Shown: one piece after another, positions 14,466 through 57,673 of the stretch
Layout: the number at the start of each line of letters is the position of its first letter
How positions within the stretch are numbered: the first letter of the stretch is position 1
Assembly (NCBI GenBank): GCA_018650645.1
Contig: JABIFP010000020.1
Location: forward strand, 82,529-146,528
Direction of reading: 5' to 3'
Length of the DNA: 64,000 nucleotides
DNA from: Candidatus Magasanikiibacteriota bacterium
GTDB lineage: Bacteria; Patescibacteriota; Patescibacteriia; Magasanikbacterales; UBA922
Translations under genes and position numbers: made by a program
Notes under the pieces: model-generated
The model's input: only the letters and a program-made list of their open reading frames with translations
Databases searched by the model: none
What the model was told of the DNA's origin: nothing

Positions 14466-14502
14466 GGAAAAAAACAACCCCTACGTCGCACGGACGTAGG
14501 GG
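14466..14502 (-). terminator. Intrinsic terminator for the foreign gene: CCCCTACGTC-GCACG-GACGTAGGGG followed by a T-run on the minus strand
   Basis: Perfect 10-bp stem, 5-nt loop, and a T7 tract on the minus strand immediately downstream of the stop at 14538. Confidence 0.65.
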
Positions 14503-14537
14503 GTGGCCGAAGTGGCCAGGTCAGGTGCTGAGATGCC

Positions 14538-15074
14538 TCAGCCCGTGAAGGTGACCAGCCGCGCCGCGATGTCGGCAAGCTCGAGGATCTCCACGGACAT
14601 GTCCGTCAGACTGCCCACCGGCACCAGGACCGCATCGTAGCCGATGATCCGGTTCTGGTCCTTCTGGAGCAAGTGCGAAAGCGCCCACACCTCACCGTCG
14701 ACGACGAAGTTTCCGCTCTCATCGACCGTGAACTCCTTCTTCTGGAAGACGATCCAGTGGGTCAGGCCCGCGCGGTGGACAACCTTGCCATCCTTCACGC
14801 AGATGAAGCCAGCGATCGCTTCCGCAGGCATGGCCGACTCACCTTGCCCGTTGTAGTACGTGACCCCTTCCGGGCACACCAGGCGAAGGGTCGGCTCGGC
14901 GTCGATGATGGGCGCGCCGTACGCGCCGTTCTTCAACTGGTAGAAGAGGTTCTGACCATCTTTCCCCGGGTTGAAGAAGTTGTAGCTGTCCGCCTCGTAG
15001 GTCATGGTGGTCTTGCTGTCCCCCACGACTGCGAACTCAAACACCCACTGACCACAGGTGATTTTCACCTTCAT
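14538..15074 (-). CDS. Compositionally foreign (high-G+C) hypothetical protein of 178 aa (MKVKITCGQWVFEF...); function unknown
   Basis: Strong G/C bias at third codon positions, unlike the neighbours. Consensus SD AAGGAG 6 nt before the ATG at 15074. Own terminator. The supplied 206-aa ORF extends upstream of the SD-supported start. Confidence 0.6.
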   Translation of the reverse strand: MKVKITCGQWVFEFAVVGDSKTTMTYEADSYNFFNPGKDGQNLFYQLKNGAYGAPIIDAEPTLRLVCPEGVTYYNGQGESAMPAEAIAGFICVKDGKVVHRAGLTHWIVFQKKEFTVDESGNFVVDGEVWALSHLLQKDQNRIIGYDAVLVPVGSLTDMSVEILELADIAARLVTFTG

Positions 15075-15105
15075 CTCAAACTCCTTAAGTCGTGCTCTCC
15101 ACACC

Positions 15106-15135
15106 CAAAAAACAGGCGTAGATACACCTGTTTTA
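15106..15135 (-). terminator. Hairpin plus T-run on the minus strand, downstream of the 15162..15947 gene
   Basis: ACAGG-TGTATCTACG-CCTGT followed by TTTTTT on the minus strand. It lies between the stop at 15162 and the SD of the foreign gene. Confidence 0.4.
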
Positions 15136-15161
15136 TCAAAAAAATCCCTATTTGTCAACCC

Positions 15162-15947
15162 TTACACCTCACTTAATGCCCCATCCACAATCTGCTGCGC
15201 CATTCCTACGCGCTTTCGCCATTCATGCGCATCATTATTGATTTGGTCTCTCCAGTGATCAATACCCCCAGCAGCCTCAACTAATGCCAAAAACTGATGT
15301 GGTGTTTCCCACTCAAGGCCTTCAAATGTCATGTATGACCGCGGCAATGCAGCCTTATGCAGCGCACTCCACCACTGCCCCCAAATACCCACATCGTCTC
15401 TGCTTTGTAACCCTAAAATCACCGCAATGGCTTCGCTCGAATAATAAAAAGCCCCGCTCAAATAATCATGCACCTCGTCTTCACCAAGGGTATGCGCAAT
15501 AACTCTGTTTGCAATGCGCTCTGTTTCAATCAATGGCTCTTGATGCATTGCATACCCGCGTTTTGATCGCTCGCACACAATATAATCCGGTAAAGCTGGC
15601 CAATCAACCACAAAAAGTTCTTTTACAAAGGCTTCTAATTCTTTTTTATGTGATGCACACCAATGCAGTGCCCTATCTAAGTCAATATAGAGTAAACCGT
15701 CTTTTCCATACTTTGCTCCTTCTGCAATTGCACGGCGATAAATCTGCCCCACATTGTTTTCTTTTTGAATCACTACGTTCCACTTCGCTTTTTTTAGTGC
15801 CTCAATAACATTCTTTTTTGTAAGCGGTGTACAAACAACAACAGCACTGCCAAAAAATACTTTTAATCGACCTGCAAATTCTTCTATTCGCGCCAGAAGC
15901 GCTCCCTGAGGATCATGATATGTACACGCAAGAGTAATCTTCGCCAT
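15162..15947 (-). CDS. Hypothetical protein in the glycan cluster (possibly a sugar-nucleotide-dependent transferase); no recognisable motif
   Basis: 261-aa ORF with host-like composition, between rfbD and the GT2 block. Confidence 0.35.
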   Translation of the reverse strand: MAKITLACTYHDPQGALLARIEEFAGRLKVFFGSAVVVCTPLTKKNVIEALKKAKWNVVIQKENNVGQIYRRAIAEGAKYGKDGLLYIDLDRALHWCASHKKELEAFVKELFVVDWPALPDYIVCERSKRGYAMHQEPLIETERIANRVIAHTLGEDEVHDYLSGAFYYSSEAIAVILGLQSRDDVGIWGQWWSALHKAALPRSYMTFEGLEWETPHQFLALVEAAGGIDHWRDQINNDAHEWRKRVGMAQQIVDGALSEV

Positions 15948-15950
15948 AAG

Positions 15951-16793
15951 TTATGTAATATAGTCAGCTAAAGCATCTTGCCAGCTGCGCATGGGTAATC
16001 GTTTTGAATTATTGAGCGTTGTATAGGCAGGTCGTTTTGCTGCCCGCGGATACGCATCAGATCCGCATGGTGTTGTTTTTACATCTAGGGAAGCCAATGC
16101 AAATGCTTCATTTGCAAATGCAAACCAGCTGCATTCCCCACTATTTGCTCCGTGATAGATTCCCGATTCTGCCTTTTCTTCAATAAGCGATTTAGTAAAT
16201 GCTGCCAAATCAGGCGCATATGTTGGTGAACCAACTTCATCATCCACAATTGAAAGTTCTGTCTTTCCCACTTCTTTCACCAAGTAGAGCATGGTATCAA
16301 TAAAACTTCGTTTACTTACTTCACTCTGTCCTTCTTTTCCAAATAATCTTGAAAGTCGAATGATGTAGTACTGCCCACCAACTTCTTGCACTGCTTGCTC
16401 TCCTGCAAGTTTAGATTCCCCGTACACATTTACTGGGCCAGTCTTAGATGCTTCCGCATGTGGCTGTGAGCCATCACCAGCAAATACATAATCAGACGAG
16501 TAATGTACAAATGTGGCACCCATACTTTTGCAGAGTGTTGCTAACTGCTTTGGCACCTCGCTATTTAACCGGAATGCTATTTCTTTTTGCGCAGCGTCTT
16601 CTTCGCACTGATCCACTGCATTATACGCTGCCGCATTAATCACCAATTCCGGTTGTTCTTTTTCAAACAGTGCTTCAACCGCTCCTGTATCAAATAAATC
16701 GAGCTCTGCCCTATCTAACGCTAAAGCATTGGGAAATACTTCCTGCAACGCTCCTCCTAGCATTCCTTTTGCTCCTAAAATTATTGTTTTCAT
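15951..16793 (-). CDS. rfbD: dTDP-4-dehydrorhamnose reductase
   Basis: N-terminal ILGAKGMLGGAL Rossmann motif; YxxxK context; ~280 aa; neighbourhood with rfbB and a cupin epimerase. Confidence 0.75.
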   Translation of the reverse strand: MKTIILGAKGMLGGALQEVFPNALALDRAELDLFDTGAVEALFEKEQPELVINAAAYNAVDQCEEDAAQKEIAFRLNSEVPKQLATLCKSMGATFVHYSSDYVFAGDGSQPHAEASKTGPVNVYGESKLAGEQAVQEVGGQYYIIRLSRLFGKEGQSEVSKRSFIDTMLYLVKEVGKTELSIVDDEVGSPTYAPDLAAFTKSLIEEKAESGIYHGANSGECSWFAFANEAFALASLDVKTTPCGSDAYPRAAKRPAYTTLNNSKRLPMRSWQDALADYIT

Positions 16794-16819
16794 ATATTTG
16801 TGCCTGGATCCTTCGATGC

Positions 16820-16915
16820 CCGGCCTTCGGCCAGGTTACTCAGGATGACATTTCCTTCTTGCTACCGGCCTTTGGCCAGGTTGTTCAGGATGACATTGTT
16901 ATTACTGGTTGTTCA
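16820..16915. repeat. Intergenic tandem repeat, ~2.5 copies of a ~44-nt unit, each with a GGCC-loop-GGCC hairpin followed by AGGTT
   Basis: CCGGCCTTCGGCCAGGTTACTCAGGATGACATT and CCGGCCTTTGGCCAGGTTGTTCAGGATGACATT differ at 3 of 33 positions, then a partial third copy. Located between rfbD and the cupin gene. Confidence 0.6.
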
Positions 16916-16929
16916 GAATGAAACCATCA

Positions 16930-17355
16930 TTATGAAATACTCAACTTCTCGTCTCTCACCTTCAAATACTCATCGTAGTCTTCAATATAATCACTTCTAT
17001 TTGGATTATAGTTTGTTGAAGAAAGCGCCAAAAGTACCGCATCGTCAGAAAAATCTTTGAAATGATGCCACACGTAATTTTGTACATATAGCGCGCTACT
17101 TGGCGCTTGCATTGGCAATTCTTCCAAGCCATTTCCTCTATCAATCACCGCTGTGCAAGAACCAGAAACAAGAATAAAAAATTCTTCTTCCTTTTTATGA
17201 CAATGTGCACCTGTTGGCCCTTCTGGAGAAGTAATATAATACACGCGTTTTACCTCAAAATCAATATACTCATGAAGCTCCACAGGATTCATGGTAAATT
17301 TTCCTGCCACGTGAATTTTTTTTAGCTCAAACTGCTCAAACGCTTTTTTTGCCAT
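16930..17355 (-). CDS. Cupin-fold dTDP-sugar epimerase/3,4-ketoisomerase (RfbC / FdtA / WxcM-like)
   Basis: Single cupin of ~141 aa with conserved His; operon context with rfbB/rfbD. Confidence 0.55.
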   Translation of the reverse strand: MAKKAFEQFELKKIHVAGKFTMNPVELHEYIDFEVKRVYYITSPEGPTGAHCHKKEEEFFILVSGSCTAVIDRGNGLEELPMQAPSSALYVQNYVWHHFKDFSDDAVLLALSSTNYNPNRSDYIEDYDEYLKVRDEKLSIS

Positions 17356-17360
17356 ATCTC

Positions 17361-18413
17361 TTAGGTTACTGACTTCATTTTTTCTTTAGAACGTTCCAGA
17401 TCCTCCTGGAATTTATTCATATCATCCTTCTTTGCTCGGAGTGTTTCTACCCACGCAGTATTACTCTTGTACCATTCAATCGTTTCAAGAAGTCCTCTAT
17501 GAAATTCGTCTATTCCATATTCTGCAGACCACCCAAGCGCCTTCATTTTACTCGCATCAATTGAATACCGTCTGTCATGACCTGGTCTATCTGTAACAAA
17601 TTCGATTTTGTCTTCACCAAATCCCATTGCTTCCAAAATCATTTTTGTCAGTTCCAAATTATTTCTTTCGTTATCAGATCCAATATTATACACCTGCCCT
17701 GGTTCTCCTTTTTGTAGTAATAGGTCGAGTGCTTTTGCATGATCTTTCACATGAATCCAATCGCGAACATTTAGTCCATCTCCATATACTGAAACTGTTT
17801 TTCCTTCTAGCAGTCTGAATACAAAAAACGGAATTAACTTTTCTGGGAATTGATATGGGCCGTAGTTATTAGAACAATGGGTTACCACTACGGGCACACC
17901 ATGTGTTACGTAATACGCATTACACATTAAATCTCCACCTGCTTTTGCTGCCGCATAGGGCATGTTTGGCATAATTGGCGCATCTTCTTTCCAAGATCTT
18001 GGGTCTTCTAATTCAAGCGCACCATATACCTCGTCTGTAGAAACATTCACAAACTTTTTGATGTTGTGATTCTTTACAGCATCCAAAATCATTTGTGTAC
18101 CAAGTGTATTTGTCAGGACAAAATCTTTGCACCCTCCATGAATTGATCGATCTACATGTGTTTCTGCTGCAAAATTGATGACGTGATCAATACCATACTC
18201 ATCCATAACGGCATTTAAGGCATCTAAATCCGTAATGTCTCCCTTCACAAAGGTATACCGAGGATCATCCTGAATATGCTCATGGTTTTCTAGGTTCCCA
18301 GCGTATGTGAGCTTATCAAAATTGATGATCTGCACATCCCCATGCGCCTCAAGCATATGATGGATGAAGTTTGAGCCAATAAAGCCAGCTCCTCCGGTAA
18401 CAAGTAATTTCAT
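17361..18413 (-). CDS. rfbB: dTDP-glucose 4,6-dehydratase
   Basis: MKLLVTGGAGFIGSNF N-terminus, YAAAKAG (YxxxK), ~350 aa extended SDR. Confidence 0.9.
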   Translation of the reverse strand: MKLLVTGGAGFIGSNFIHHMLEAHGDVQIINFDKLTYAGNLENHEHIQDDPRYTFVKGDITDLDALNAVMDEYGIDHVINFAAETHVDRSIHGGCKDFVLTNTLGTQMILDAVKNHNIKKFVNVSTDEVYGALELEDPRSWKEDAPIMPNMPYAAAKAGGDLMCNAYYVTHGVPVVVTHCSNNYGPYQFPEKLIPFFVFRLLEGKTVSVYGDGLNVRDWIHVKDHAKALDLLLQKGEPGQVYNIGSDNERNNLELTKMILEAMGFGEDKIEFVTDRPGHDRRYSIDASKMKALGWSAEYGIDEFHRGLLETIEWYKSNTAWVETLRAKKDDMNKFQEDLERSKEKMKSVT

Positions 18414-18475
18414 AAAACAGTAATAAAGAGTATAGAAAGAGGCCTATATGACCCCTCTAGCCCCGCAATTATACA

Positions 18476-19264
18476 TTAATCGAGCGGATAATCAAATTCG
18501 TCTCCCGTATTTAATCTTCTTGAGCTAAACATGATGAGTGCTGAAGGGTCATCAAGCGGGTTGGTCATTCTTGCGCAAACCCCGGAAGGCATTTGAATTG
18601 CTCGAGTTGCGCTCGTAAGTGCCCCTACATAGCGCTCTTTTGTATCGATTTGTTCACAAATAACATCAACTTGCCCGTACGCAACGTAGAACATGAGGTC
18701 TGTTTGTTTATGATAGTAATCCCCAATAACCTTTTTGGGACTAAGCACGAGCCTCGAAATATATATAGACCCTACTTTGGCAGTTGCCAAAATTCTTCCT
18801 TGATTTGATTTATCTTGCTGAAAATTAAACATGTCGAGCTGATTTTCACAGCGCTCCCCTAAACAAGTACCTTCATCCATTTCTCTAAAAGAATCGCTTT
18901 TTGAACGCAGCTCTCTATTACTGAAAAATACTAAGATAGCATTTCCCTTCCCAACATTCTGCGTTGAAATTTTGTGGCACGGTGGAATTTGTACGATGTG
19001 CCTACCGGGATCTAAAATGAATTCCTTCCGTTTTTTTGTACACACTTGTTCAAATGATGCATGCACGCGGCCCTTTGCAACATAAAACACCACTTCCGTT
19101 TCTTTATGATAATACCCACCCGTAATTACACCTGGTTCAATTTCAACACGAGTCATAAAGACATCACCAATTTTTGCTGTTGAAACGCGCCTTCCCGGCT
19201 TGCTCAGATCATGCACAAAATCGCAGATCGTGATAAATTGTGGTGTTATCCCAGAATCAGTCAT
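18476..19264 (-). CDS. Bicupin protein (two WxcM/FdtA-like cupin domains), probable sugar isomerase
   Basis: Internal duplication: GGYYHKETEVVFYVAKGRVHASFEQ and GDYYHKQTDLMFYVAYGQVDVICEQ. Confidence 0.5.
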   Translation of the reverse strand: MTDSGITPQFITICDFVHDLSKPGRRVSTAKIGDVFMTRVEIEPGVITGGYYHKETEVVFYVAKGRVHASFEQVCTKKRKEFILDPGRHIVQIPPCHKISTQNVGKGNAILVFFSNRELRSKSDSFREMDEGTCLGERCENQLDMFNFQQDKSNQGRILATAKVGSIYISRLVLSPKKVIGDYYHKQTDLMFYVAYGQVDVICEQIDTKERYVGALTSATRAIQMPSGVCARMTNPLDDPSALIMFSSRRLNTGDEFDYPLD

Positions 19265-19282
19265 ACTCCCCTTTATTACCCT

Positions 19283-19813: not shown

Positions 19814-19814
19814 A

Positions 19815-25075: not shown

Positions 25076-25813
25076 TTACTCAGAATCCTCTGCTGAAGCG
25101 ACTGCGGAAGTACCGGTTCCACGTTCGGCTTCTGCCAAAATGACTGCAAAGTGATCCATTAGGATCTTAGTTCCCTGTTTTACTGCTTCTTTTACTGCTA
25201 ATGTTCCATTCGTTTCAATCGTCATGGTAAGTTTTTCAAAATCTGTCACATCTCCTACACGAGTATTTTCTACCGCATATCCCAAATCTCTGATTGGTGT
25301 GTAGAGAGAATCGATCAAAATTGTTCCAAGATCAACATTCTTTGCTTCCTTTTCTTTCACTGGAACGTATCCCAAACCTTTTCCGATAATAACTTCCATT
25401 TCAAGTGCTTTCCCGTCATCAGTAAGTGTAAGCAAATGTAAATCTTTGTTTACAAGTTCGATGTCTGCGTTATCTTTGAAATCTGCAGCAGTTACAGGAC
25501 CAAGTCCTTTTTTGCTGAGTTTTAGTAGTACAGGTTCTTCAGCATGTGAAATCACTGCAAGTTGTTTGAGGTTCAAGATAACTTCAACCATGTCTTCTTG
25601 CACGCCATCAATAGCGCCGAATTCATGTTGAACTCCATCGATTCGTACAGATTCAACAGCAGCACCCGGAAGTGATGCAAGGAGTACACGACGAAGTGCA
25701 TTTCCTAATGTTGTTCCGTATCCTTTTTCACAAGGAGAAACGATCAATTGACTCACGTTTTTTTGATCAGTTTCTTGAAACTCGATAGTTGTTGGAAGAA
25801 GAATGTGTTCCAT
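25076..25813 (-). CDS. rpoA: DNA-directed RNA polymerase alpha subunit, N-terminal domain only (245 aa)
   Basis: Alpha-NTD dimerisation region; position between rpsD and rplQ. It stops about 85 aa short of a canonical alpha, so it has no alpha-CTD. Confidence 0.8.
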   Translation of the reverse strand: MEHILLPTTIEFQETDQKNVSQLIVSPCEKGYGTTLGNALRRVLLASLPGAAVESVRIDGVQHEFGAIDGVQEDMVEVILNLKQLAVISHAEEPVLLKLSKKGLGPVTAADFKDNADIELVNKDLHLLTLTDDGKALEMEVIIGKGLGYVPVKEKEAKNVDLGTILIDSLYTPIRDLGYAVENTRVGDVTDFEKLTMTIETNGTLAVKEAVKQGTKILMDHFAVILAEAERGTGTSAVASAEDSE

Positions 25814-35535: not shown

Positions 35536-37767
35536 CTACGAATCAAACCGAATCACATTATTTGGAGAAAGTTGTGTTGGACCGTCAGATGTTTTTTCTG
35601 GCGCTACAGCTGGCTGCGCTGCAGGTGTTGCCGCTTGCTCTACCTGTGGAGAGGGCTGTGACATATCACCACTTCCTTCTCCTGTTTTCTTTTTTCTTCT
35701 TCTGCGACGTTTTCTTTTTTTCTTTGGTGGATTGTTTTCATCAATAAAAGGAGAGCTAGCAGAAGGAACAGATGCTTCGGCGGGTGCATGTGCTACTTCC
35801 GCAGTTTCTTGTAAGATTTCTGGCACTACGGGTTTTGCTGCAGGAATTTCTGGTGTAGGTGATTCTTTAGGTACCTCTATTTTTTCTTTAACATCCGCTG
35901 CCGTCGATATTGCAGGCTCATCTTTTACTACCAGTTTTTCCTGGACGACTGGCACTTCCTTCACAACTGGCGGTACCGGCATTTCTTTTACCACAGGTAC
36001 TATAGGTTCTTCTTCCCAAAGTAATGGCTCAGTTGCCTCAAGAACCTCTGGTTTTATCACCACGTGAGCTTCTGGAGCAGGAGTGATTTTCCCGACGTCT
36101 AGTGCACTCGGTTGCTCAGCAGCATCGAAAACCTCTTCTTTAGCGGGAGTAGGTGCTGGTGCTGGTGTAGCAACGGCAGCAATTGGTTCAGGTTTCTTTT
36201 CTGCCACTGGTTTATTTTCAACAGTCGATTTTTTCTCGGTTCTTGGTGTCTCTTCTCTTCTCGGTTTATTTTCTGAAGGTCTATCTGATCGTCTATTATC
36301 AGATGGCTTATCTGATCGTCGTTTTTCTGAAGGTCTATCTGATTGTTTAGTATCAGACGATCTATCTGATCGCTTATTGTCTGACGATCTTTTTCTATCA
36401 TCTTTTTTCTTTTTGTCGATGGGCGGCAATACATCCTCATCTTTTTCATCGCCAAAACCACTCCAACGCATAATTTTCTCTTCGATTTCGGCTCGTTTTC
36501 TTCCGTATCTTTCTCTTGAAACACGAATTACCTTTTCTGCTGAACCTGTTGGAGAACCAATTGGTGGCAATGTCAGTGCACTAAATGGCTGAGAAGCAAC
36601 CCCATCAATCATAAGTTTGAGTAAAATTTGGTATTTTGCCAAATTTACAATATCTTCTTCCATAAAAATAGGCGCATACTCTTTTGCCAACGATTCAGCA
36701 TCTGATGCCCCCACACGGAAAGATATAATAGTTCCAACATTACCAAATACAGCATCAGCAACCACTTCGTCTAACTGCGCAACATATTGATGCGCCATAA
36801 TAAGACCCAAATGATATTTACGCGCCTCAGAAAGAATATTGGCAAATGACGGTGTCGCAAAGTTTTGGAATTCATCTACATACAAGAAAAAATCTCGTCT
36901 ATCTTTTTCTAGCATATCAACACGCTCCATGGCAGAAAGCTGCAACTTGGTAATGAGCATTCCACCCAAAAGCCGCGAGTTATCTTCCCCCATTCGCCCT
37001 TTAGAGAGATTCATGATCAAAATTTTCCCGTCATCCATTGCCTTTCTTACATCAAACGTTGATTTTGGCTGCGCAACCATGTTTCTAATCAGTGATGCAG
37101 ATAAAAATTGCCCAATCTTATTTTGAATAGGAGCAACCGCTTCTGTCGCATATTTTTCTGAATATCCAGCAAACTCAATCTGCCAAAAACTCTTTACAAC
37201 CGGATCATTCGTTCCTTTAATCAATTTTCTTCTATATTTTTTATCTGACAACAATCGATTAATTCCAAGGAGTGTTGTTCCTGGGTTATCTAATAATACT
37301 AGCAGCGTATTATTTAAAATGTATTCCATTCTAGAAGACCATACGTCTGGCCAAATCTTTTTAAATGTTCCCATCATTCCTGCCGCAACAAGATGTTTCT
37401 GCTCTTCATTATATACTTCCAAAATATTAAACCCGATTGGATTTGATAAATCAGCTGGATTCACATAAATCACATCATTCATGCGCCAACTTGGAATGTA
37501 ATCAATAATTTTTTCTGCAAAATCTCCGTGAGGATCAATAAGTCCTACACCATGTCCATTATAAATATCAGAAAGCATCATGTTTTCCATCATGGTACTT
37601 TTTCCCATTCCTGTTTTTCCAATAATGTAACTGTGTCTGCGCCTGTCATCGATTTTAATACCAAACCGTCTCATCTGGTTTCTATAATTGGTTTGCGCAA
37701 ACAAACAGATCTCATTAGGATCTGGTGCAGGGGCTTCGTCTTGCTTCAGTAAATATGGAGCTGGCAT
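35536..37767 (-). CDS. P-loop ATPase of the TraG/VirD4/HerA (DUF87-like) type with a long disordered, repeat-rich, charged/Pro-rich C-terminal tail ending in a poly-basic stretch
   Basis: Walker A IIGKTGMGKST; Walker-B-like FFLYVDEFQ; no TM segment. The tail has RSD/KPSD and PVV/KEV repeats and KKKRKRRRRRKKK. Confidence 0.5.
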   Translation of the reverse strand: MPAPYLLKQDEAPAPDPNEICLFAQTNYRNQMRRFGIKIDDRRRHSYIIGKTGMGKSTMMENMMLSDIYNGHGVGLIDPHGDFAEKIIDYIPSWRMNDVIYVNPADLSNPIGFNILEVYNEEQKHLVAAGMMGTFKKIWPDVWSSRMEYILNNTLLVLLDNPGTTLLGINRLLSDKKYRRKLIKGTNDPVVKSFWQIEFAGYSEKYATEAVAPIQNKIGQFLSASLIRNMVAQPKSTFDVRKAMDDGKILIMNLSKGRMGEDNSRLLGGMLITKLQLSAMERVDMLEKDRRDFFLYVDEFQNFATPSFANILSEARKYHLGLIMAHQYVAQLDEVVADAVFGNVGTIISFRVGASDAESLAKEYAPIFMEEDIVNLAKYQILLKLMIDGVASQPFSALTLPPIGSPTGSAEKVIRVSRERYGRKRAEIEEKIMRWSGFGDEKDEDVLPPIDKKKKDDRKRSSDNKRSDRSSDTKQSDRPSEKRRSDKPSDNRRSDRPSENKPRREETPRTEKKSTVENKPVAEKKPEPIAAVATPAPAPTPAKEEVFDAAEQPSALDVGKITPAPEAHVVIKPEVLEATEPLLWEEEPIVPVVKEMPVPPVVKEVPVVQEKLVVKDEPAISTAADVKEKIEVPKESPTPEIPAAKPVVPEILQETAEVAHAPAEASVPSASSPFIDENNPPKKKRKRRRRRKKKTGEGSGDMSQPSPQVEQAATPAAQPAVAPEKTSDGPTQLSPNNVIRFDS
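36240..36400. repeat. In-frame ~27-nt tandem repeats (GGTCTATCTGATCG...-like units) encoding the R/S/D/K-rich tail repeats of the ATPase
   Basis: At least four consecutive units visible: tctatctgatcgtctattatcagat / ggcttatctgatcgtcgtttttctgaa / ggtctatctgattgtttagtatcagac / gatctatctgatcgcttattgtctgac. Confidence 0.6.
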
Positions 37768-41808: not shown

Positions 41809-41840
41809 AAAAACTACTCGTATGAGTGGTTTTTTTGTTG
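41809..41840 (+). terminator. Second copy of the 32-bp rpmA terminator (direct repeat) after the 307-aa gene
   Basis: AAAAACTACTCGTATGAGTGGTTTTTTTGTTG identical to 40785..40816. Confidence 0.6.
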
Positions 41841-41869
41841 ACAGAAACAGTAAATAGCCGTAGAGTCTA

Positions 41870-42295
41870 GTGAAACACGAACTCTTGAGGGATTCCATGC
41901 GAAATGTGCTATGGACGGCTCTCTTGATTGCCGTCTTTCGATTTGTGACGTATTCACAAGACCTACCTGAGGTACTGTTCTTTGCGGCTTCCTTTGTGGT
42001 CGTCATGCAGAGGATCCTCTATGAGGTGCAGCGCTCGGCAGAGTCGAAGAAGTATCAACGGTGGGCCATCATTGGTAGCTGGTATGTTCAAAACATCAGC
42101 GCCATGGCGGTGATCCTGGCGGCGATCGCCGGGCTCGGACACTGGGTGAACTTTGTGGACGGCCGATCGAACAGTGAACCCGACCCCGTGCCGCTCGCGC
42201 TGCTACTCCTGCTGTGCGTCGTCGGCCTGGCAGGCTTTCTGTCACTCGACCCAACCAACCCAACCAGCCACCTCGGTGGCAAGGAGGACAACTAG
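41870..42295 (+). CDS. Compositionally foreign (high-G+C) small 4-TM membrane protein; start is GTG 41870 or ATG 41897
   Basis: G+C-rich codons; four hydrophobic helices. GAGGGA precedes ATG 41897 by 4 nt. Own terminator directly after the stop. Confidence 0.5.
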   Translation: MKHELLRDSMRNVLWTALLIAVFRFVTYSQDLPEVLFFAASFVVVMQRILYEVQRSAESKKYQRWAIIGSWYVQNISAMAVILAAIAGLGHWVNFVDGRSNSEPDPVPLALLLLLCVVGLAGFLSLDPTNPTSHLGGKEDN

Positions 42296-42296
42296 T

Positions 42297-42324
42297 GGGC
42301 CGCGCATGCGGTCCTTTTGCTTTT
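42297..42324 (+). terminator. Intrinsic terminator GGGCCGC-GCAT-GCGGTCC followed by TTTTGCTTTT
   Basis: 7-bp stem with one G-U pair, tetraloop, and a T-rich tract immediately after the stop at 42295. Confidence 0.55.
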
Positions 42325-42342
42325 ACGCTATACTATAGTCCT

Positions 42343-42798
42343 ATGAAATATTATATCCTTCTTTTAGCCATTTTCTTTACCTTTGGGTTTGGCTGTACAA
42401 AAACAGTAGCACCAACATATACACCTCCTGAGGGACAGGTGCACATTGATCCGCAAGAACAGGTAACGCTGGAAGGTTACCTTTCAGCATCCAACCAAGC
42501 AGCAGGAAAAACGCTCACTATTGATGAAGTACAAGTATCAAAGCATGCGTGGATTGCTATTTATGCTTCTGATAAAAACAGACCCGGCAAAATATTGGTA
42601 GCGACAGCCGTGTCCCCTGCTGACCGTGGTCCCGTTGCTATTGCATTACCAAACTCTTCAACCGTTGGCGAAATGTACTATATTCTCTTGCATGAAAGCG
42701 GCAGTGAACCAGGATTCAACTTTATGGAAGACGATTTTCCGAGTGATGCGACGAAAGCTACCAGTGTAGAGATTGTTGACAAGAATACACAAATATGA
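42343..42798 (+). CDS. Lipoprotein (signal peptide with lipobox ...FGFGC), unknown function
   Basis: MKYYILLLAIFFTFGFGCTK N-terminus. The supplied ORF 42214..42798 starts upstream inside the foreign gene; the ATG at 42343 gives a canonical lipoprotein signal. Confidence 0.55.
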   Translation: MKYYILLLAIFFTFGFGCTKTVAPTYTPPEGQVHIDPQEQVTLEGYLSASNQAAGKTLTIDEVQVSKHAWIAIYASDKNRPGKILVATAVSPADRGPVAIALPNSSTVGEMYYILLHESGSEPGFNFMEDDFPSDATKATSVEIVDKNTQI

Positions 42799-49516: not shown

Positions 49517-49546
49517 AAAAAAAAACAACCGCTATGCGGTGTTTTT
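49517..49546 (-). terminator. Bidirectional intrinsic terminator (A9, ACCGC-TAT-GCGGT, T5) ending the CheY-like module transcript
   Basis: Hairpin flanked by AAAAAAAAA and TTTTT; downstream (minus strand) of the G+C-rich module. Confidence 0.5.
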
Positions 49547-49562
49547 GAAGTGATTAAGTAGA

Positions 49563-49574
49563 ATCCCCCGACGG
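49563..49574. repeat. Left arm of a 12-bp perfect inverted repeat, ATCCCCCGACGG; its partner CCGTCGGGGGAT is at 50124..50135
   Basis: Exact reverse-complement 12-mers that bracket the G+C-rich CheY-like module. Confidence 0.6.
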
Positions 49575-49708
49575 ATTCCACCCGCAATGCACCTGGCAAC
49601 TACCTTGCCTTCACAAGCCCTAGGGTCTCCAGCCCCAAAGCTCAGCGCAGCAGCTGCTGTGTATCGTGTTGCTCGTGTTGTCGTTGTCGCCGAAGCGACG
49701 TCGTAGCG

Positions 49709-50086
49709 TTAGTTCGCCAGCCGAAGGCTAGCGATCCGCAGCATAGTACCAGCAGTCGTGTAGAGCTCCCCAAGGCGCAACTTCGAAAAGTCGACCCCAG
49801 GACGCATCGAACCACTCATAACGAGGACCGGAACAGACGAGAACCTCTCGGTAATAGCCTGTTTAAGCCAGAACCCGTTATGACGGTGCTGCATGTCGAC
49901 GTCCGTAATGACTAGATCGACACGCGTGGTCTCCATCAGCTCGAGAGCCTCTGGAGGGTTATTGGCGAAGACGATGTCAACGTCCATCACGTGCACCCTG
50001 GCCATGTAGCGCAACAAGTTGCGCCGGACCAAGATCTGGATGTTCGTTTCGTCGTCGACGACCAAAACAGTGGGCTTGTTACCCAT
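49709..50086 (-). CDS. Compositionally foreign (high-G+C) single-domain response regulator (CheY-like receiver, 125 aa)
   Basis: LVVDDE acidic pocket, the LVITDVDM phospho-acceptor Asp, and the VLVMSGS Thr/Ser position. SD AGGAG 5 nt before the ATG at 50086. The supplied ORF, extended to 50152, is not supported by the SD. Confidence 0.65.
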   Translation of the reverse strand: MGNKPTVLVVDDETNIQILVRRNLLRYMARVHVMDVDIVFANNPPEALELMETTRVDLVITDVDMQHRHNGFWLKQAITERFSSVPVLVMSGSMRPGVDFSKLRLGELYTTAGTMLRIASLRLAN

Positions 50087-50123
50087 GGTTGCTCCTCTCG
50101 TTGAGGTGCACCACGGGCTTTCA

Positions 50124-50135
50124 CCGTCGGGGGAT
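50124..50135. repeat. Right arm of the 12-bp inverted repeat, CCGTCGGGGGAT
   Basis: See 49563..49574. Confidence 0.6.
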
Positions 50136-50151
50136 AGCCCCAAGTAAACCA

Positions 50152-50415
50152 TTATTTTGACGTTTTGTCAATCCCTAAGCGCGTAATAAGTTGTTGTTTT
50201 TGTTCTTTTGAAAATTGTTTAATCTGCCACTCACGCTTAAGCGCCGCAGATCTATCCGTACATTTCTCACTATACACAAGTGTTATGGGGAGCCGCGCAC
50301 GCACATATTTGGCTCCTTTGCCTGATCTGTGCACCGCTAGCCGTGATTCTAGATCTTTTGCTATTCCTGTATATAAGCTACCGTCTGTGCATGACAAAAT
50401 ATAAACTGTGTACAT
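50152..50415 (-). CDS. GIY-YIG nuclease-family small protein (YhbQ/UPF0213-like)
   Basis: YTVYILSCTDGSLYTGIAKDLESRLAVH GIY-YIG motif; 87 aa; host-like composition. Confidence 0.75.
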   Translation of the reverse strand: MYTVYILSCTDGSLYTGIAKDLESRLAVHRSGKGAKYVRARLPITLVYSEKCTDRSAALKREWQIKQFSKEQKQQLITRLGIDKTSK

Positions 50416-50421: not shown

Positions 50422-50457
50422 TAAAAAAAATTGGCCGGCAGCTGGAGACTGACGGCC
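50422..50457 (-). terminator. Intrinsic terminator (GGCCG-16-nt loop-CGGCC followed by T9) ending the 50573..50995 module, 6 nt upstream of the GIY-YIG start codon
   Basis: Stem GGCCG/CGGCC followed by AATTTTTTTTT on the minus strand. Confidence 0.5.
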
Positions 50458-50572
50458 TAATTCGCTCCCGAAGGAGCATCTGGGTCTTTACGAGAGGAGC
50501 ACTCACGTTCTGACCACACTCTGACTATGCCCTATTTGCCCGGAGTTGTCAAGTGAATAACTCGATGCGCTC

Positions 50573-50995
50573 CTACTGGGAAAACCTGTTCGGCGGAGGC
50601 GCCTGGGGCCTTGCCTCTTGGAGCAGATGATCGCGGAGTGCGGTAGCGGCGGCTTGCGCAGCACCGTCGATGCTCGCGGCGTCGAGCGGCCCGAGAGCTT
50701 CGGCAGCATTCTGCGCTACAAATACGCGATACGCGCCAGTGAGCGCCTCGATCTGCTCGCCGTTGAGCGGGAACTGCGCAGCGTCAAGCTCAACCTCTCT
50801 GAGCGCTTGCGTATATATATATGTTAGGAAATCCCCAACATTCCCCTCCTGCGCTGACGCCAGCTTGATCTCAGCCGAAAAGGCCTTGACCAACTCACCC
50901 TCGCAAGTGAGAACACTCCCAATTCGTTCCTCGCTGCGCTCTTCTTCAATATTACGAGCGGCCCAGACTTCTGGTACCATGTTTTCCATACCCAT
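50573..50995 (-). CDS. Compositionally foreign (high-G+C) acidic hypothetical protein (140 aa, Ala/Glu-rich, Pro-rich C-terminus)
   Basis: G+C-rich codon usage. AGGGG SD 6 nt before the ATG. A structured ~120-nt 3'UTR with a GCTCC-UUCG-GGAGC hairpin. Confidence 0.55.
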   Translation of the reverse strand: MGMENMVPEVWAARNIEEERSEERIGSVLTCEGELVKAFSAEIKLASAQEGNVGDFLTYIYTQALREVELDAAQFPLNGEQIEALTGAYRVFVAQNAAEALGPLDAASIDGAAQAAATALRDHLLQEARPQAPPPNRFSQ

Positions 50996-51085
50996 CGATT
51001 TCCCCTTTACAAATTAGCGATTCCTGCCGTATACTACTCGCGTAGTTCACAGCTAGGTGGACGAAGACATTATAACATAGACTTT

Positions 51086-53096: not shown

Positions 53097-53133
53097 ATAA
53101 AAAAAACAGCCCTCATTGAGTGCTGTTTTTTTA
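53097..53133. terminator. Bidirectional terminator between htpX and the convergent 53131..53607 gene
   Basis: A8, AACAGC-loop-GCTGTT, T7. Confidence 0.5.
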
Positions 53134-53607: not shown

Positions 53608-53749
53608 ATGAATATTAATGATGCCTTCATTGATTACGACCCTATTATAACACCCACATTCTTCCCGTCAAAAAGGCTCCCAAAAACACCCCGTTTTTAA
53701 ACAAATCGGTTAATATGATATGATAGCGAAGCCTTGCGGAGGCAGAGAT

Positions 53750-56707
53750 ATGACAACAAGAACACCTGAAGAAATATTAGACCAACCCAAGGTCTCTTTA
53801 GTAGAGGTCTATTTGCAGTTGCAACAGCATTACGAAGGGGTGTTTGGTGAAAATGCTATCATTATTATGGAAGTTGGTTCATTTTACGAAGTGTATGGTG
53901 TGGATAATGCAGAGATGAAGATTGGGAAACCAAAAGAGATTGCAGAAGTACTTAACATTCAACTTACAAGACGAAATAAACGAGATCTGCAAAATAGTAT
54001 GAAGAATCCCCTCCTTGCGGGATTCCCTACTGCTACATTTGATAGATACATTGGCAGACTCACCGCAGAAAATCGCTATACCATTATTATTGTAAGGCAA
54101 AAAGGAGCACCACCAAATGTAGAGAGATATATTGACCGCGTGTTGTCTCCTGGGGTGAACTTTGATTACCGACCAGGCCACGATGAACAAACCATGGCGA
54201 GTGTGCTTGTTGAAATGTCTGGCAACATGTATAACGCGGCGTATTCAGCAATAGATGTTGCTACCGGCAAGTCCTACGTTTTTGAAGCGCACAGCACAGG
54301 GGAAGATCATACCGCTGCGCTTGATGCTATCTTTCATCTGCTCCAATCGCGTGGTACAGGAGAAGTGGTGCTCACGTGTAGCCCTGACATTGCCCCTTTT
54401 GTAACAGACTATTTGGAACTCCAAAATATTGGCAGCCTAACAACGCAAGAAAAACGACTTGATGTAGCGTTTCAAAATACGCTGCTCGGCTCAACATATA
54501 ATATTGAATCATACCTTTCTGCGGTTGAAACACTCGATTTAGAAAAGACACCACTTGCTTCTGAAGCGCTGGCGCTTGTCATCGATTGGATTATTCAGCA
54601 TGAACGGCCTTTGGCAGAACGACTGCATCGACCAATGCTTTTGCGCAATAATGCCTTTTTATATTTAGGAAACGATCCACTCCATCAGCTTGCAATGCTG
54701 TCTCATGATCCGCATGAGCAGACTATTCTCAAACTCATGAACCATACGCGCACCAGCATTGGTCGCAGGCTTTTGAAAGACCGACTCCTCCACCCTATTA
54801 CCAATCCAGAAGAAATGACGGCGCGATATGATTTAGCAGATGCCGTGGCGCCACTGATTACGGAAATTGAAATTCATTTGCGTGAAGTGTATGACATAGA
54901 ACGCCTTGCCCGCAGATTACGGCTTGGTCGGCTGCATCCGTTTGAAGTAAACTTTTTGTTCGACTCTCTTGAAGCAGCCATTAATATTATTACCACGCTT
55001 GAGTCTCAAGATCTTCCTGCAATAAAACAGCTGCAGGATCATAAAGAAACCATTCAAACCTGTATTAAAGAAGTGAAAGCACATTTTTCACTTTCAGAAA
55101 CTGGGCAAGTGACCAATCAAGCTATTTCAAGGTCTTTGTTTAAACAAGGATTTGATAAAGAACTCGATGCCATGCTTGCGCAAAAAGAAGCTGAAGAAGC
55201 AAAGCTTGAGCTGATTAAAGAAAAAATGGTTGAGCTGCTCCTTGATGCAACGGGAAAAGACGAGAGCAACTTTGTGGTAATAAAACAAATGGATAAAGAT
55301 GGTCACTACATTTCTTTGACCAAAAGCCGGTATGCACAAATTCAAGAAGCGCTTAGTGACACGTACGTGTCGATTGATGAAACCGTGTATGCATTTTCTG
55401 ATTTCAGATTTAAAGTGCAAGTTGGCAATGTAAAAATCACCGCAGGAATTATTGATGACGTCTCTGGTAGTATTGTTTCTTTACAAACAAAAATAATTGG
55501 TCGAGTACGTGAACTATTTGCACAAGAGCTTGTAAGTTTGGACACAACCTTTGGCGATACTATTCATATGGTAAGTGGATTACTTGCCGCGATTGATGTA
55601 GCTGTTTCTACCGCTAAGGCGGCACAAACGTTGCGGCTCGTAAGGCCAGAACTTACCGCATCAAAAAATCATGAAAACTATTTAGAGATTGCAGATTTAC
55701 GCCACCCTCTTGTAGAGGCGCGTGAGGAAAATGGAATTTATATAACAAATAATGTACTGCTCGGTTCTGCTGAGTATACTAATGACAATACACTACCAAT
55801 GCTGCCTGAAGCTGATGATGTGCGCGGCCTTTTGCTATACGGCATCAATGCAAGTGGAAAGTCGTCCTTTATGAAAGCTATAGGGATTGCTGTAATGCTT
55901 GCTCAAGCTGGGTTTTTTGTTCCAGCAACCAGGATGCGATTTAGTCCATTTGAAGAACTCTTTACGCGAATATTAGCAAAAGATAATGTAGAGCGCGGTC
56001 TTTCTTCCTTTGCAGTAGAAATGATGGAACTTAAAAATATTTTTACGCGCTGCTCCCCAAAAAGTTTGATTCTAGGCGATGAGATTTGCCGTGGAACAGA
56101 AACACTTTCTGCTATTGCTATTGTAAGCGCCGCAGTAAAGCGCCTCAGTGAAAAAGGAAGTCTCTTTTTGTTCACCACCCATCTGCATCAGCTAGCAAAC
56201 CTAGATGTGTTCTCTTCCCTACCGCATGTGGTCTGTGGCCACCTTGCCGTTCGGTATGATGAAGCGCAGGATTTGCTTATCTTTGACAGAACTCTGCAAC
56301 AAGGAAGTGGAAGTAGCATTTACGGACTCGAGTTTGCGCAGTCTCTTCACATGGATGAAACCTTCCTCAAAGATGCCATGAATATCCGGAAACATTTGGC
56401 CGATGATTTTGATGAACTGGAACTACTCACAAAAAAAGTAAAAAGTGCATATAATAAAGACCTGTTCTTATCTTCGTGCAGCTTGTGTCATAATAAAGCA
56501 GAAGAAACACATCATATTTCTCCGCAAGAGATTGCAGATAAGCACGGAAACATTGGTCACTTTCATAAAAATCATAAAGCCAACCTTATTACCCTTTGCG
56601 ATGATTGTCATGACAATATCCATCACGGGAAAATAAAAGTGAAAGGATATGTGATGACGAGTAAAGGGTTGCAGCTGGATGTTGAGGAGATGGAACAAGA
56701 ATCATAA
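53750..56707 (+). CDS. MutS-family protein with C-terminal HNH endonuclease domain (MutS-HNH fusion)
   Basis: MutS domain I (GSFYEVYGVDNAE), Walker A GINASGKSSFMKAIG, and a C-terminal HNH motif (C..CH...HHI.P...HGNIGHFH.NH..NLITLCDDCHDNIHHG). SD GGAGG precedes the ATG at 53750; the supplied ORF starts at 53720. Confidence 0.75.
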   Translation: MTTRTPEEILDQPKVSLVEVYLQLQQHYEGVFGENAIIIMEVGSFYEVYGVDNAEMKIGKPKEIAEVLNIQLTRRNKRDLQNSMKNPLLAGFPTATFDRYIGRLTAENRYTIIIVRQKGAPPNVERYIDRVLSPGVNFDYRPGHDEQTMASVLVEMSGNMYNAAYSAIDVATGKSYVFEAHSTGEDHTAALDAIFHLLQSRGTGEVVLTCSPDIAPFVTDYLELQNIGSLTTQEKRLDVAFQNTLLGSTYNIESYLSAVETLDLEKTPLASEALALVIDWIIQHERPLAERLHRPMLLRNNAFLYLGNDPLHQLAMLSHDPHEQTILKLMNHTRTSIGRRLLKDRLLHPITNPEEMTARYDLADAVAPLITEIEIHLREVYDIERLARRLRLGRLHPFEVNFLFDSLEAAINIITTLESQDLPAIKQLQDHKETIQTCIKEVKAHFSLSETGQVTNQAISRSLFKQGFDKELDAMLAQKEAEEAKLELIKEKMVELLLDATGKDESNFVVIKQMDKDGHYISLTKSRYAQIQEALSDTYVSIDETVYAFSDFRFKVQVGNVKITAGIIDDVSGSIVSLQTKIIGRVRELFAQELVSLDTTFGDTIHMVSGLLAAIDVAVSTAKAAQTLRLVRPELTASKNHENYLEIADLRHPLVEAREENGIYITNNVLLGSAEYTNDNTLPMLPEADDVRGLLLYGINASGKSSFMKAIGIAVMLAQAGFFVPATRMRFSPFEELFTRILAKDNVERGLSSFAVEMMELKNIFTRCSPKSLILGDEICRGTETLSAIAIVSAAVKRLSEKGSLFLFTTHLHQLANLDVFSSLPHVVCGHLAVRYDEAQDLLIFDRTLQQGSGSSIYGLEFAQSLHMDETFLKDAMNIRKHLADDFDELELLTKKVKSAYNKDLFLSSCSLCHNKAEETHHISPQEIADKHGNIGHFHKNHKANLITLCDDCHDNIHHGKIKVKGYVMTSKGLQLDVEEMEQES

Positions 56708-56731
56708 AACGCCCAAAAGGGCGTTTTTGCT
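56706..56731 (+). terminator. Intrinsic terminator after the MutS-HNH gene (AAAACGCCC-AAAA-GGGCGTTTT)
   Basis: Perfect 9-bp stem followed by TTTTTGCTT. Confidence 0.6.
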
Positions 56732-56732
56732 T

Positions 56733-56775
56733 ATAAAAAAAGAACCGGCCCCACAACGTGTGTGTGAGCCGGCAT
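56733..56775 (-). terminator. Intrinsic terminator for the foreign 226-aa gene (GCCGGC, long loop, GGCCGG, then T-run on the minus strand)
   Basis: The hairpin is followed by CTTTTTTTAT on the minus strand, downstream of the stop at 56819. Confidence 0.4.
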
Positions 56776-56818
56776 TGTCACCGCGACGATAGTGCCGTGG
56801 TGGCGATAGGCGCAAGGC

Positions 56819-57499
56819 CTAGAGCCTGCAGCCGTTGCGAGCCACCGAGATAGCGTTCGCGAGCTTGCTTTCGACGGTCATCCTCGTCCTCTCCTCGAGG
56901 GGATAACCACCATAGTGAGCCACCTTCACGGGAGATTCATCGTGAAGGTCTACCACGATGGGAACATTCCGTGACTTGTCACCGGACGCGAGAGAAACCG
57001 CAATGATCTTTCCCTCACGGATCGTGATCTCCGGACGCTGCTGCCCCCCAGCCGAAGTCCTCAGAAGAGACATCACGTCCCGGAGAAGATCATCGCTGAT
57101 CACGATTTCCAGCTCACCGAAGGCTCCGCGGAGTTTCGCCATCACATCCAGATAGAACTCCGCTTCACGATGTAGCTGACGCAATTGCCTAAGCTCCACG
57201 TGCAGACCCGAGATGGCCTTGTGCATCGGGAGGGCATCCTCACCCCTCCGACAATGCAGCACCAGGATGCGTCCCGAGAAAGGCCCCGCGGCAATCACTT
57301 TCGGATCGCTCTGAGGGAGCATTTTCACACGCGCGCACCGCTTCCAGCTGAGAACCGTGGGTACTGGACCCACGCCAGGATACTGCACCCAGTGCTCCAC
57401 CAGCTCTTCCAGCTGATTCTCCGTGAGTTTGATCCGCTGATCCACTAGCACGTGCTGGATCGTCGCCTTCAGGGCCGCATAGAATGCCGCACTGATCAT
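56819..57499 (-). CDS. Compositionally foreign (high-G+C) hypothetical protein (226 aa); no recognisable domain
   Basis: Strong G/C bias at third positions in an AT-rich context; own terminator; AT-rich upstream region. Confidence 0.5.
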   Translation of the reverse strand: MISAAFYAALKATIQHVLVDQRIKLTENQLEELVEHWVQYPGVGPVPTVLSWKRCARVKMLPQSDPKVIAAGPFSGRILVLHCRRGEDALPMHKAISGLHVELRQLRQLHREAEFYLDVMAKLRGAFGELEIVISDDLLRDVMSLLRTSAGGQQRPEITIREGKIIAVSLASGDKSRNVPIVVDLHDESPVKVAHYGGYPLEERTRMTVESKLANAISVARNGCRL

Positions 57500-57673
57500 C
57501 TCTCTTGTCCTAACACCCCTCCCTGGGGATTATGGCGCATTGCGCCGTTTTAGTTCGAGTAGAGCTAACCAGAAAACAGCCATTTTGTCAATGGTAGTGC
57601 TTCCCCACTCGTGCACAGAAAGACTCTATGGTATACTTTATTCATCATTGTATTTATTTTTTTCTCACACTCT

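Follow-up and report, generated by a model that had tools for sequence, protein, structure and literature searches.

A 64,000-nucleotide stretch from the genome of an uncultured marine Candidatus Magasanikiibacteriota bacterium (contig JABIFP010000020.1, positions 82,529 to 146,528; hereafter the window, to which all coordinates refer unless another contig is named) contains five short G+C-rich genes that lie singly among A+T-rich neighbours. We interpret the five segments as independent, horizontally acquired single-gene islets, the chromosomal counterparts of phage "morons", and put the probability of this reading at roughly 0.6. It is the best explanation because the discontinuity in composition is quantified, the segments show coding periodicity, their junctions are reproduced, and related genomes contain other islets as well as empty sites.

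The compositional discontinuity of the five segments is real. The whole window has a G+C content of 0.424 (windows of 150 nucleotides (nt): mean 0.424, standard deviation 0.055), and six long segments exceed 0.54 at this window size: 1344–1647 (0.546), 14415–15066 (0.59), 41974–42352 (0.573), 49525–50155 (0.555), 50430–50993 (0.576) and 56692–57583 (0.568). Background open reading frames (ORFs, n = 64) have G+C fractions at the first, second and third codon positions (GC1/GC2/GC3) of 0.527/0.380/0.352 (standard deviations 0.055/0.061/0.066). The corresponding values are 0.58/0.37/0.86 for the ORF at 14538–15074 (minus strand, islet 1), 0.61/0.38/0.71 for 41870–42295 (plus strand, islet 2), 0.57/0.36/0.72 for 49709–50086 (minus, islet 3), 0.70/0.44/0.62 for 50573–50995 (minus, islet 4) and 0.66/0.40/0.69 for 56819–57499 (minus, islet 5). 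Both the sliding-window profile and the GC3 values of 0.62–0.86 (z = 4.0–6.6, calculated for four of the five) confirm a first-pass annotation of this DNA, which had described five G+C-rich ORFs with G/C-ending codons among A/T-rich neighbours. The comparison with ribosomal-protein genes that it proposed places these lowest, with a GC3 of 0.24–0.29 far below the islets, so the islet values do not reflect expression-linked codon bias. Third positions in the islands are A in 0.04–0.15 and T in 0.09–0.24 of cases, versus 0.32 and 0.35 in the background. On the 3′ side, high G+C reaches 30–180 nt beyond each stop codon into untranslated regions (UTRs) of 55–67% G+C that end in a hairpin and a T-run, and on the 5′ side each G+C-rich tract ends near the start codon or at most about 60 nt upstream of it. 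Since the richness extends into non-coding 3′ UTRs, codon selection is unable to explain the discontinuity. In three of the islet proteins the share of lysine among lysine and arginine, K/(K+R), is 0.20–0.37 versus 0.59 in the background, which fits proteins that evolved under GC pressure.

The five ORFs are true genes and not artefacts. GC2 is the lowest codon position in each of the five ORF frames, a coding signature, with the order GC3 > GC1 > GC2 (in islet 4 the values above place GC1 over GC3). The gene of islet 5 is found on 21 public contigs and that of islet 1 on six (JGI, ENA and Logan assemblies), five independent contigs showing islet 1 in unchanged surroundings at 99.9–100% identity, and at all five units the contigs that we fetched are 99.9–100% identical to the window over the junctions they cover; the identical junctions in independent public assemblies exclude a chimeric or engineered origin. 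No strain polymorphism was seen, every public contig of this species being clonal and 100% identical. An artefactual origin of the pattern, be it chimeric assembly, contamination or deliberate engineering, is accordingly given hardly any weight: although the edges of the units are clean, many independent assemblies and pipelines span the junctions without a mismatch, the largest contig that carries an islet measures 407 kb, and several independently assembled, related metagenome-assembled genomes (MAGs) show the same phenomenon with other genes. The deliberate insertion that the first-pass annotation had considered is contradicted by the same evidence, the identical sequence recurring in many independent environmental assemblies and wild relatives being alike with different genes.

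Chimeras or rearrangements do exist, as two low-coverage contigs from other metagenomes fuse island sequence to unrelated high-G+C DNA. The first (L182, ENA ERZ23491197, 3,267 nt) matches window positions 50762–49113 with 99.7% identity and represents a strain variant with four single-nucleotide polymorphisms and one indel. Its nt 1–1584, upstream of the match, have 66–70% G+C and are in frame with codon 79 of the islet 4 ORF; this 1.58 kb of DNA encodes an acyltransferase and a PAS protein in canonical high-G+C codon usage. The second (L183, 607 nt, coverage 1.1) is 100% identical to window positions 50069–49661, while in its nt 1–198 operon-like DNA of 63% G+C replaces the first six codons of the islet 3 gene and everything upstream of them, supplying an in-frame alternative start and the alternative N-terminus MSVDTPH; a Pfam search with the upstream ORF of this contig gave nothing. 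The two contigs may be chimeras of the assembly, or they may show genuine donor or strain contexts.

Each islet is a predicted monocistronic transcription unit with a composition unlike that of its neighbours, and the anatomy bears out the earlier description of an A+T-rich upstream region, a compact coding sequence (CDS) and an own G+C-rich terminator for every unit. Islet 1 (14466–15158, minus strand) begins with a TTGACAAA box at 15158–15151 and continues with the Shine-Dalgarno sequence (SD) AAGGAG at 15086–15081, a CDS for 178 amino acids (aa) at 15074–14538 (NCBI HOE53_02770) and a terminator with a hairpin at 14505–14475 and a T-run to about 14468. Islet 2 (41838–42324, plus strand), for which a generic scan lists both promoter and terminator, has the promoter TTGACA-17-TAGAGT at 41838–41866, the SD GAGGGA at 41887–41892, a CDS at 41897–42295 (132 aa) and a terminator at 42297–42314 followed by a T-run. 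The first-pass annotation had this gene start at the alternative GTG at 41870 (141 aa); its end is retained, and the ATG at 41897 is the most likely start given the SD and the public call of a 132-aa gene. Islet 3 (49517–50171, minus) comprises a TTGACAAA box at 50171–50164, the SD GAGGAG at 50097–50092, a CDS at 50086–49709 for a 125-aa stand-alone receiver (MBT4153589.1), a G+C-rich 3′ UTR of 180 nt and a terminator at 49540–49528 with a T-run. Islet 4 (50422–51074, minus) comprises a TATAAT hexamer at 51074–51069, the SD AAGGGGA at 51007–51001, a CDS at 50995–50573 (140 aa; 138 aa in NCBI HOE53_02985) and a G+C-rich 3′ UTR with hairpins and a T-run at about 50456–50422. The two halves of its ORF differ, with GC1/GC2/GC3 of 0.63/0.37/0.56 in the N-terminal and 0.79/0.53/0.68 in the C-terminal half. 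Islet 5 (56734–57591, minus), which is convergent with mutS (53720–56707, plus), comprises a TTGACAAA box at 57591–57584, a CDS at 57499–56819 (226 aa, HOE53_03015) and a G+C-rich 3′ UTR with a hairpin and a T-run at about 56773–56734. The near-consensus SDs described earlier are present in islets 1, 3 and 4, while islet 5 has a weak or distant one. Exactly between islets 3 and 4 lies a gene with host-like composition for a stand-alone GIY-YIG nuclease of 87 aa (50152–50415, minus), and the TTGACAAA box of islet 3 falls within the 3′ end of this gene.

Upstream of the CDS, every unit is A+T-rich, with a perfect TTGACA box in four of the five and the TATAAT −10 hexamer in islet 4. The TTGACAAA octamer occurs five times in the window, four times upstream of G+C-rich islands and in the correct orientation (1216 plus, 15158 minus, 50171 minus and 57591 minus), the fifth copy (27919 plus) heading an ordinary gene. 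Promoter spacers measure 17 nt, and the −10 hexamers are weak, often with TG just before them. For comparison with relatives we used MutS-anchored loci of Magasanikbacteria-like MAGs (L numbers) with about 50–55% MutS identity to the window. The same type of box occurs at G+C-rich genes of these relatives (TTGACAAAAACGTTTTTTTGTGCTATACT in L014, TTGACAAAAAGGGTTTTTTGTGGTATATT in L019) and also at normal genes of L022; being shared by G+C-rich and ordinary genes, it is the general promoter of the clade rather than the hallmark of a cassette. As the site counts of the generic promoter and terminator scan of the region did not exceed those of shuffled sequences, what we say on promoters is based on the perfect −35 boxes and on where these lie, and promoter and terminator activity of the islets is deduced from these sequence features.

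These promoter-like boxes and terminators, together with the fact that G+C-rich islands in A+T-rich genomes are often RNA genes, could also suggest that the islands are structured non-coding RNAs and their ORFs incidental. We consider the probability of this negligible, and for the five ORFs the idea is rejected by the strong codon periodicity in the ORF frame of all five, by ORF size (ORFs of 125–226 codons are improbable by chance, with about 3e-4 for 226 codons at this composition by our own estimate) and by Pfam matches to a receiver domain (REC, islet 3) and to a SET domain (in a relative). Searches of the window with Rfam and ARAGORN returned no match and no tRNA. The RNA idea may still hold only for a possible sixth unit at 1216–1655 (plus strand), with TTGACAAA at 1216–1223, a hairpin at 1622–1639 and a T-run at 1646–1652, which had been described as a G+C-rich non-coding island (1437–1652) sharing the pattern of the five genes. 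Its tract at 1437–1620 is indeed G+C-rich (55%), but GC1, GC2 and GC3 are flat, so that codon periodicity is lacking, and the folding z-score is a modest −2.1; Rfam gave no match to the unit. A decayed islet and a small RNA are both conceivable. The unit is convergent on the stop codon (1642) of a 357-aa gene, and public pipelines disagree at this place, calling a 108-aa ORF on the plus strand or an 84-aa ORF on the minus strand.

Related genomes contain further islets. Isolated GC3-rich genes (0.62–0.96) are found in L011 (the same strain as L091), L013, L014, L019 and L092, and were not seen in L012, L016–L018, L020–L022 and L093–L098. Their cargo comprises a SET-domain protein, a Cys-rich lipoprotein with Dicty_CTDC repeats, a protein with the C-terminal domain (CTD) of the RNA polymerase alpha subunit, lipoproteins and orphans; none of these genes in the related loci examined is homologous to an islet gene of the window. 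Presence and absence at one and the same site were observed in three pairs of loci. The 12951–15009 segment of L019, with a promoter, a G+C-rich gene for 578 aa and terminators, is replaced by 59 nt in L022, and L019 16483–17733 by 47 nt in L022; L092 has about 5 nt in place of L011 2966–4931, which includes the SET gene; and the gap between rpsI and mutS measures 2.4 kb in L014 versus 90 nt in L011. A target-site duplication (TSD) is not visible at the L019 insert. The density of islets is high, with five units in the 64 kb of the window or about 8% of its genes, and none in a further 8.7 kb.

The position directly after mutS is occupied by a G+C-rich island in the window, L011, L013, L014, L019 and L092, and is without a G+C-rich gene in L022 and L093. 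All 37 differences between L019 and L098 are located at the 3′ end of mutS (12355–12721), and seven of the 11 differences between L011 and L091 are found at 11948–12016, adjoining the slot. These strain-difference tracts look like recombination imports and fit an exchange of the slot content by homologous recombination in the flanks. In L013 and L092 the gene that follows mutS encodes a lipoprotein, and the two are orthologues that have the YCSVPxGYVRCQ core and the PPDPT C-terminus in common and are 80% identical at the 3′ junction; L014 may hold a very diverged third copy. Right after mutS, a hairpin-rich element (…GAAGCAAAACTCG…CTCAAACAGTTGCTTCAT-CCGCC…GGCGG) is conserved in L092 (12965–13045), L093 (7975–8045) and L011 (about 12950–13130), and the "empty" site of L093 contains it twice in inverted orientation.

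Several further observations concern these loci. MutS of the window has 995 aa with a putative C-terminal Cys/His extension, HNH-like by eye, and its best matches outside the relatives from the Candidate Phyla Radiation (CPR) are from Campylobacterota (about 43–46%), which suggests an unusual or transferred lineage. The RpoA protein of the window (25076–25813, minus strand; 245 aa) consists of PF01193 and PF01000 only and has no alpha C-terminal domain; the 303-aa protein of a G+C-rich inserted gene in L019 (16640–17551, minus) has a stand-alone RNA_pol_A_CTD domain (E = 1.7e-13). The MAGs of L011, L013, L014 and L015 are titled "uncultured Gammaproteobacteria bacterium" and are probably mislabelled, since their composition, their MutS similarity and the gene order of their ribosomal operon put them among the Magasanikbacteria-like CPR genomes. 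At 13560–13870, L014 has a masked N-run with a duplicated start region flanking it.

The boundaries of the five units have nothing in common that would mark a mobile element. We found no direct or inverted repeats, att-like motifs or TSDs common to the units, hairpins with T-run tails being the sole shared feature of their 3′ regions, and the alignment of module boundaries suggested by the first-pass annotation brought up no shared attachment-site or repeat motif. In alignments of flank against flank, compared with shuffled sequences, only islet 3 was significant, and direct repeats were absent. Islet 3 has a perfect 12-nt inverted repeat with one arm in each UTR, ATCCCCCGACGG at 50135–50124 (5′) and CCGTCGGGGGAT at 49574–49563 (3′). 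This repeat, for which the single test among 12 gave a p of about 0.003, can be extended to 32 nt at 72% and may pair the two ends of the mRNA or be a relic of the insertion event. Gene and Pfam tables for about 1–17 kb and 23–64 kb of the window list no integrase, recombinase, transposase, phage or tRNA genes.

A single mobile or functional system with the five units as its cassettes, whether integron-like, MITE-like or a dispersed signalling or defence module, is therefore very unlikely in our view. The common build of promoter, SD, compact CDS and terminator, the inverted repeat that brackets the receiver gene and the position of four of the five TTGACAAA copies upstream of G+C-rich islands would all agree with such a system. 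However, boundary sequences are not shared and the other units have neither direct nor inverted repeats, the 12-mer is confined to islet 3 and absent from the rest of the window and from the related loci, and ordinary genes, too, have TTGACAAA as their promoter box (window 27919; L022). Like integron cassettes, the islets are compact, contain a single ORF each, vary in function and are foreign in composition, but IntI, attI, attC and Pc are missing from the tables and 3′ regions covered, and whereas integron cassettes are arranged in tandem and mostly promoterless, the islets lie scattered across 43 kb and have individual promoters and Rho-independent terminators. Cassettes of the MITE or transposon type have terminal inverted repeats, TSDs and multiple copies; of these, the flank alignments revealed only the inverted repeat of islet 3. 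The first-pass annotation had favoured cassettes on the premise that natural transfer rarely leaves clean promoter–CDS–terminator units, yet phage morons are just that (PMC3594210).

The cargo does not form a system either, but consists of mutually unrelated proteins: a stand-alone receiver of divergent sequence, one small membrane protein and three orphans. The CheY-like receiver described earlier is confirmed by a PF00072 match of 43.9 bits (curated cut-off 30.2; E = 3e-11) to the islet 3 protein; by inspection, residues D11-D12, D62 and S91 are present and the conserved Lys is uncertain (possibly K102). It lacks an output domain, matches response regulators in PDB weakly (E = 3e-4), and its nearest non-self relative is 40% identical (word-indexed search of 5.8 × 10^9 clusters). 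The nearest homologue, P0004, was followed up and proved uninformative, as it sits in an unrelated 2-Mb genome with Mer genes. The islet 2 protein (141 aa from the GTG start) has four hydrophobic segments, in agreement with the membrane protein with four transmembrane segments recognised before and again judged by eye; it gave sub-threshold noise in Pfam and a single weak hit in PADLOC (E = 0.016), and the searches of PHROGs, plasmids (tblastn) and IMG/VR viral contigs were negative.

The three soluble proteins that had been called unrecognisable remain so, with nothing above threshold in Pfam, PHROGs and PADLOC. The 178-aa protein of islet 1 found only itself in the word-indexed search of 5.8 × 10^9 clusters and had no match in Pfam, PHROGs, PADLOC, PDB, plasmids, phages (tblastn) or IMG/VR viral contigs. 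The 226-aa protein of islet 5 found only itself among 1.84 × 10^9 representatives (full HMMER), in agreement with the 5.8 × 10^9-cluster search, and had no Pfam match above threshold and none in PHROGs, PADLOC, PDB or phages (tblastn). For the 140-aa protein of islet 4, searched like that of islet 2 in Pfam, PHROGs, PADLOC, plasmids and viral contigs only, there was no Pfam family, either with the whole protein or with each half, no PADLOC, plasmid or IMG/VR viral-contig match, and a sub-threshold PHROG match (E = 0.056). Among the five proteins, hidden Markov model searches recognised only the receiver domain. Structure prediction, also proposed earlier, was run for two proteins and was of no use, the single-sequence AlphaFold2 models reaching a pLDDT of 45 (178 aa) and 40 (226 aa). 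The suggested dispersed functional set has not stood up, as the proteins are unrelated, absent from the related loci examined and without any PADLOC match above noise (E ≥ 0.016).

From these data we infer the following origin of the islets. Each G+C-rich fragment, composed of CDS, 3′ UTR and terminator, would stem from a high-G+C pool that is not represented in the databases and would have entered an intergenic site of the low-G+C chromosome, the likely route being uptake through ComEC, a channel that the window itself encodes, with illegitimate integration thereafter. The islet would then be transcribed monocistronically from an A+T-rich sigma-70-type promoter of the clade, TTGACA(AA) with a 17-nt spacer and an often TG-extended −10 hexamer, up to its own intrinsic terminator. 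Among related strains, islets were probably spread and replaced by homologous recombination in conserved flanking genes. ComEC is recognised by PF03772 at 8070–9485 and Lactamase_B at 7191–8066 (minus strand), and is split (7191–9485, minus) between two genes, one of 471 aa with the Competence domain and one of 291 aa with the metallo-beta-lactamase domain. A gene for a 743-aa TraG/TrwB-like coupling ATPase (35536–37767, minus) adjoins that of a 760-aa TPR protein. The split ComEC and the TraG/TrwB-like ATPase possibly serve in DNA trafficking.

A number of observations weigh against acquisition from a high-G+C donor. No donor or close homologue of the islet proteins was found in the databases searched, the receiver relative being at most 40% identical. 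No empty site was found for the window's own five sites, as all public contigs of the species are identical and MutS scans of genomes and metagenomes brought up no relative closer than about 54% MutS identity, with a different synteny. The L019 insert includes, in comparison with L022, its own A+T-rich TTGACAAAA promoter, so that no G+C-rich donor supplied the unit directly as it now stands. The codons of the islands in four genomes are unlike those of a canonical high-G+C bacterium, for which the high-GC part of contig L182 served as comparison: CTC is at least as frequent as CTG, AGG makes up 9–23% of Arg codons, GC1 is 0.56–0.63, and GGT accounts for an atypical 35% of Gly codons. The 178-aa protein of islet 1 has a host-like amino-acid composition (GC2 0.37, K-rich) although its GC3 is 0.86. 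Finally, the orthologous lipoproteins of L013 and L092 share 57% of their amino acids versus 84% for MutS (dN 0.37 versus 0.11) and only 43% of their third positions, and still have a GC3 of 0.71–0.75 at a core dS of about 1.3, whereas by our own two-state amelioration estimate (equilibrium GC3 0.3) it should have dropped to about 0.52 or less, even if it had started at 1.0.

Alternatively, the islets could be long-resident, fast-evolving, lineage-specific genes in which a locus-restricted, GC-favouring process generates or keeps the G+C in place, their orphan status reflecting fast divergence in a sparsely sampled clade. Candidate processes are GC-biased gene conversion at recombination hot spots and selection on synonymous sites or on the mRNA. 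In favour of such an origin, the L013/L092 orthologues evolve faster than the core and keep their GC3 with largely randomised third positions, recombination tracts abut the post-mutS slot, the non-canonical codon traits (CTC at least equal to CTG, raised AGG) are common to the islands of four genomes, and the 178-aa protein resembles a low-G+C-type protein written in G+C-rich codons. ORFans, moreover, are usually A+T-richer and GC3-poorer than the other genes of their genome (PMC4706650). Nevertheless, close relatives have empty sites of 5–59 nt instead of A+T-rich orthologues, strand asymmetry is no greater than in ordinary high-GC genes, and ongoing recombination is not seen among the public contigs of the window species, which are all clonal. 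The orthologue test comprises a single pair with 60 aligned codons. A model in which host codons change purely through transitions at third positions (A to G, T to C) accounts for Leu and Arg usage, fails for Gly, Ala and Pro by our reading of the codon tables, and was rejected as insufficient. We know of no bacterial case in which biased conversion shifted GC3 by +0.4 to +0.6. We therefore regard maintenance in place as unlikely, though as the most serious competitor of horizontal acquisition. More doubtful still is the specific proposal that a GC-favouring regime limited to single accessory transcription units operates in a subclade of Magasanikbacteria, so that the composition would not be a fading donor signature at all; biased conversion at hot spots, a mutational bias limited to transcription units and synonymous-site selection are possible drivers. 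If real, such a regime would speed up the evolution of these genes, make orphans of them and keep their GC3 at 0.7–0.96 in a 40% G+C genome.

As horizontal acquisitions, the islets most resemble morons, the independent transcription units inserted between phage or prophage genes that go back to Hendrix and colleagues (reviewed in PMC3594210). In both cases a single gene with its own promoter and terminator and a differing composition lies between unrelated neighbours (PMC3594210), presence and absence vary among related genomes, and the cargo is diverse and often of unknown function. Whereas morons sit in phages and prophages, the islets are found among chromosomal housekeeping genes (mutS, pheST, rseP, glycosyltransferases); PHROG matches of the window islets are limited to generic receiver families, and the searches of phage records and viral contigs revealed none. 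Unlike that of morons, the islet cargo is G+C-richer and not poorer than the recipient, and acquired genes in general are usually A+T-richer than the genome. With genomic islets and transfer hot spots the units share atypical composition, sporadic distribution, empty sites, refilling of the same slot and recombination tracts in the flanks; they differ in that no integrase, tRNA or insertion sequence lies nearby in the gene tables, in their very high density, in a cargo that is entirely orphan or highly divergent, and in a GC3 of up to 0.86–0.96. Transfer from host to episymbiont is familiar in the CPR, for example in Saccharibacteria living on high-G+C Actinobacteria, and would match a competence-equipped, reduced-genome CPR bacterium with genes of high-G+C composition; here, however, homologues are missing from the high-G+C organisms searched, and codon usage is atypical for high-G+C bacteria. 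Our literature searches brought up no earlier account of orphan G+C-rich islets in the CPR. The islets thus look like ordinary but unusually dense horizontal acquisitions, and differ from the known kinds by their housekeeping context, their density, the direction of the G+C shift and the lack of identified close relatives.

For annotation, this means that the islets are natural accessory genes and neither a construct, nor a misassembly, nor a new cassette system. CPR bacteria (Patescibacteria) are reduced-genome symbionts whose hosts and routes of gene gain are mostly unknown. In this setting, dense G+C-rich orphan single genes in several related genomes indicate continued uptake and expression of foreign DNA. 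The islets may be DNA captured via ComEC from a high-G+C host and thereby usable as host tracers: if their donors can be traced, they could reveal the hosts of marine Magasanikbacteria, with L182 and L183 as a possible lead. If instead the G+C is kept in place, as the L013/L092 pair hints, the islets would represent an unusually strong, locus-restricted GC-biased evolution in bacteria and also a path to the origin of orphan genes.

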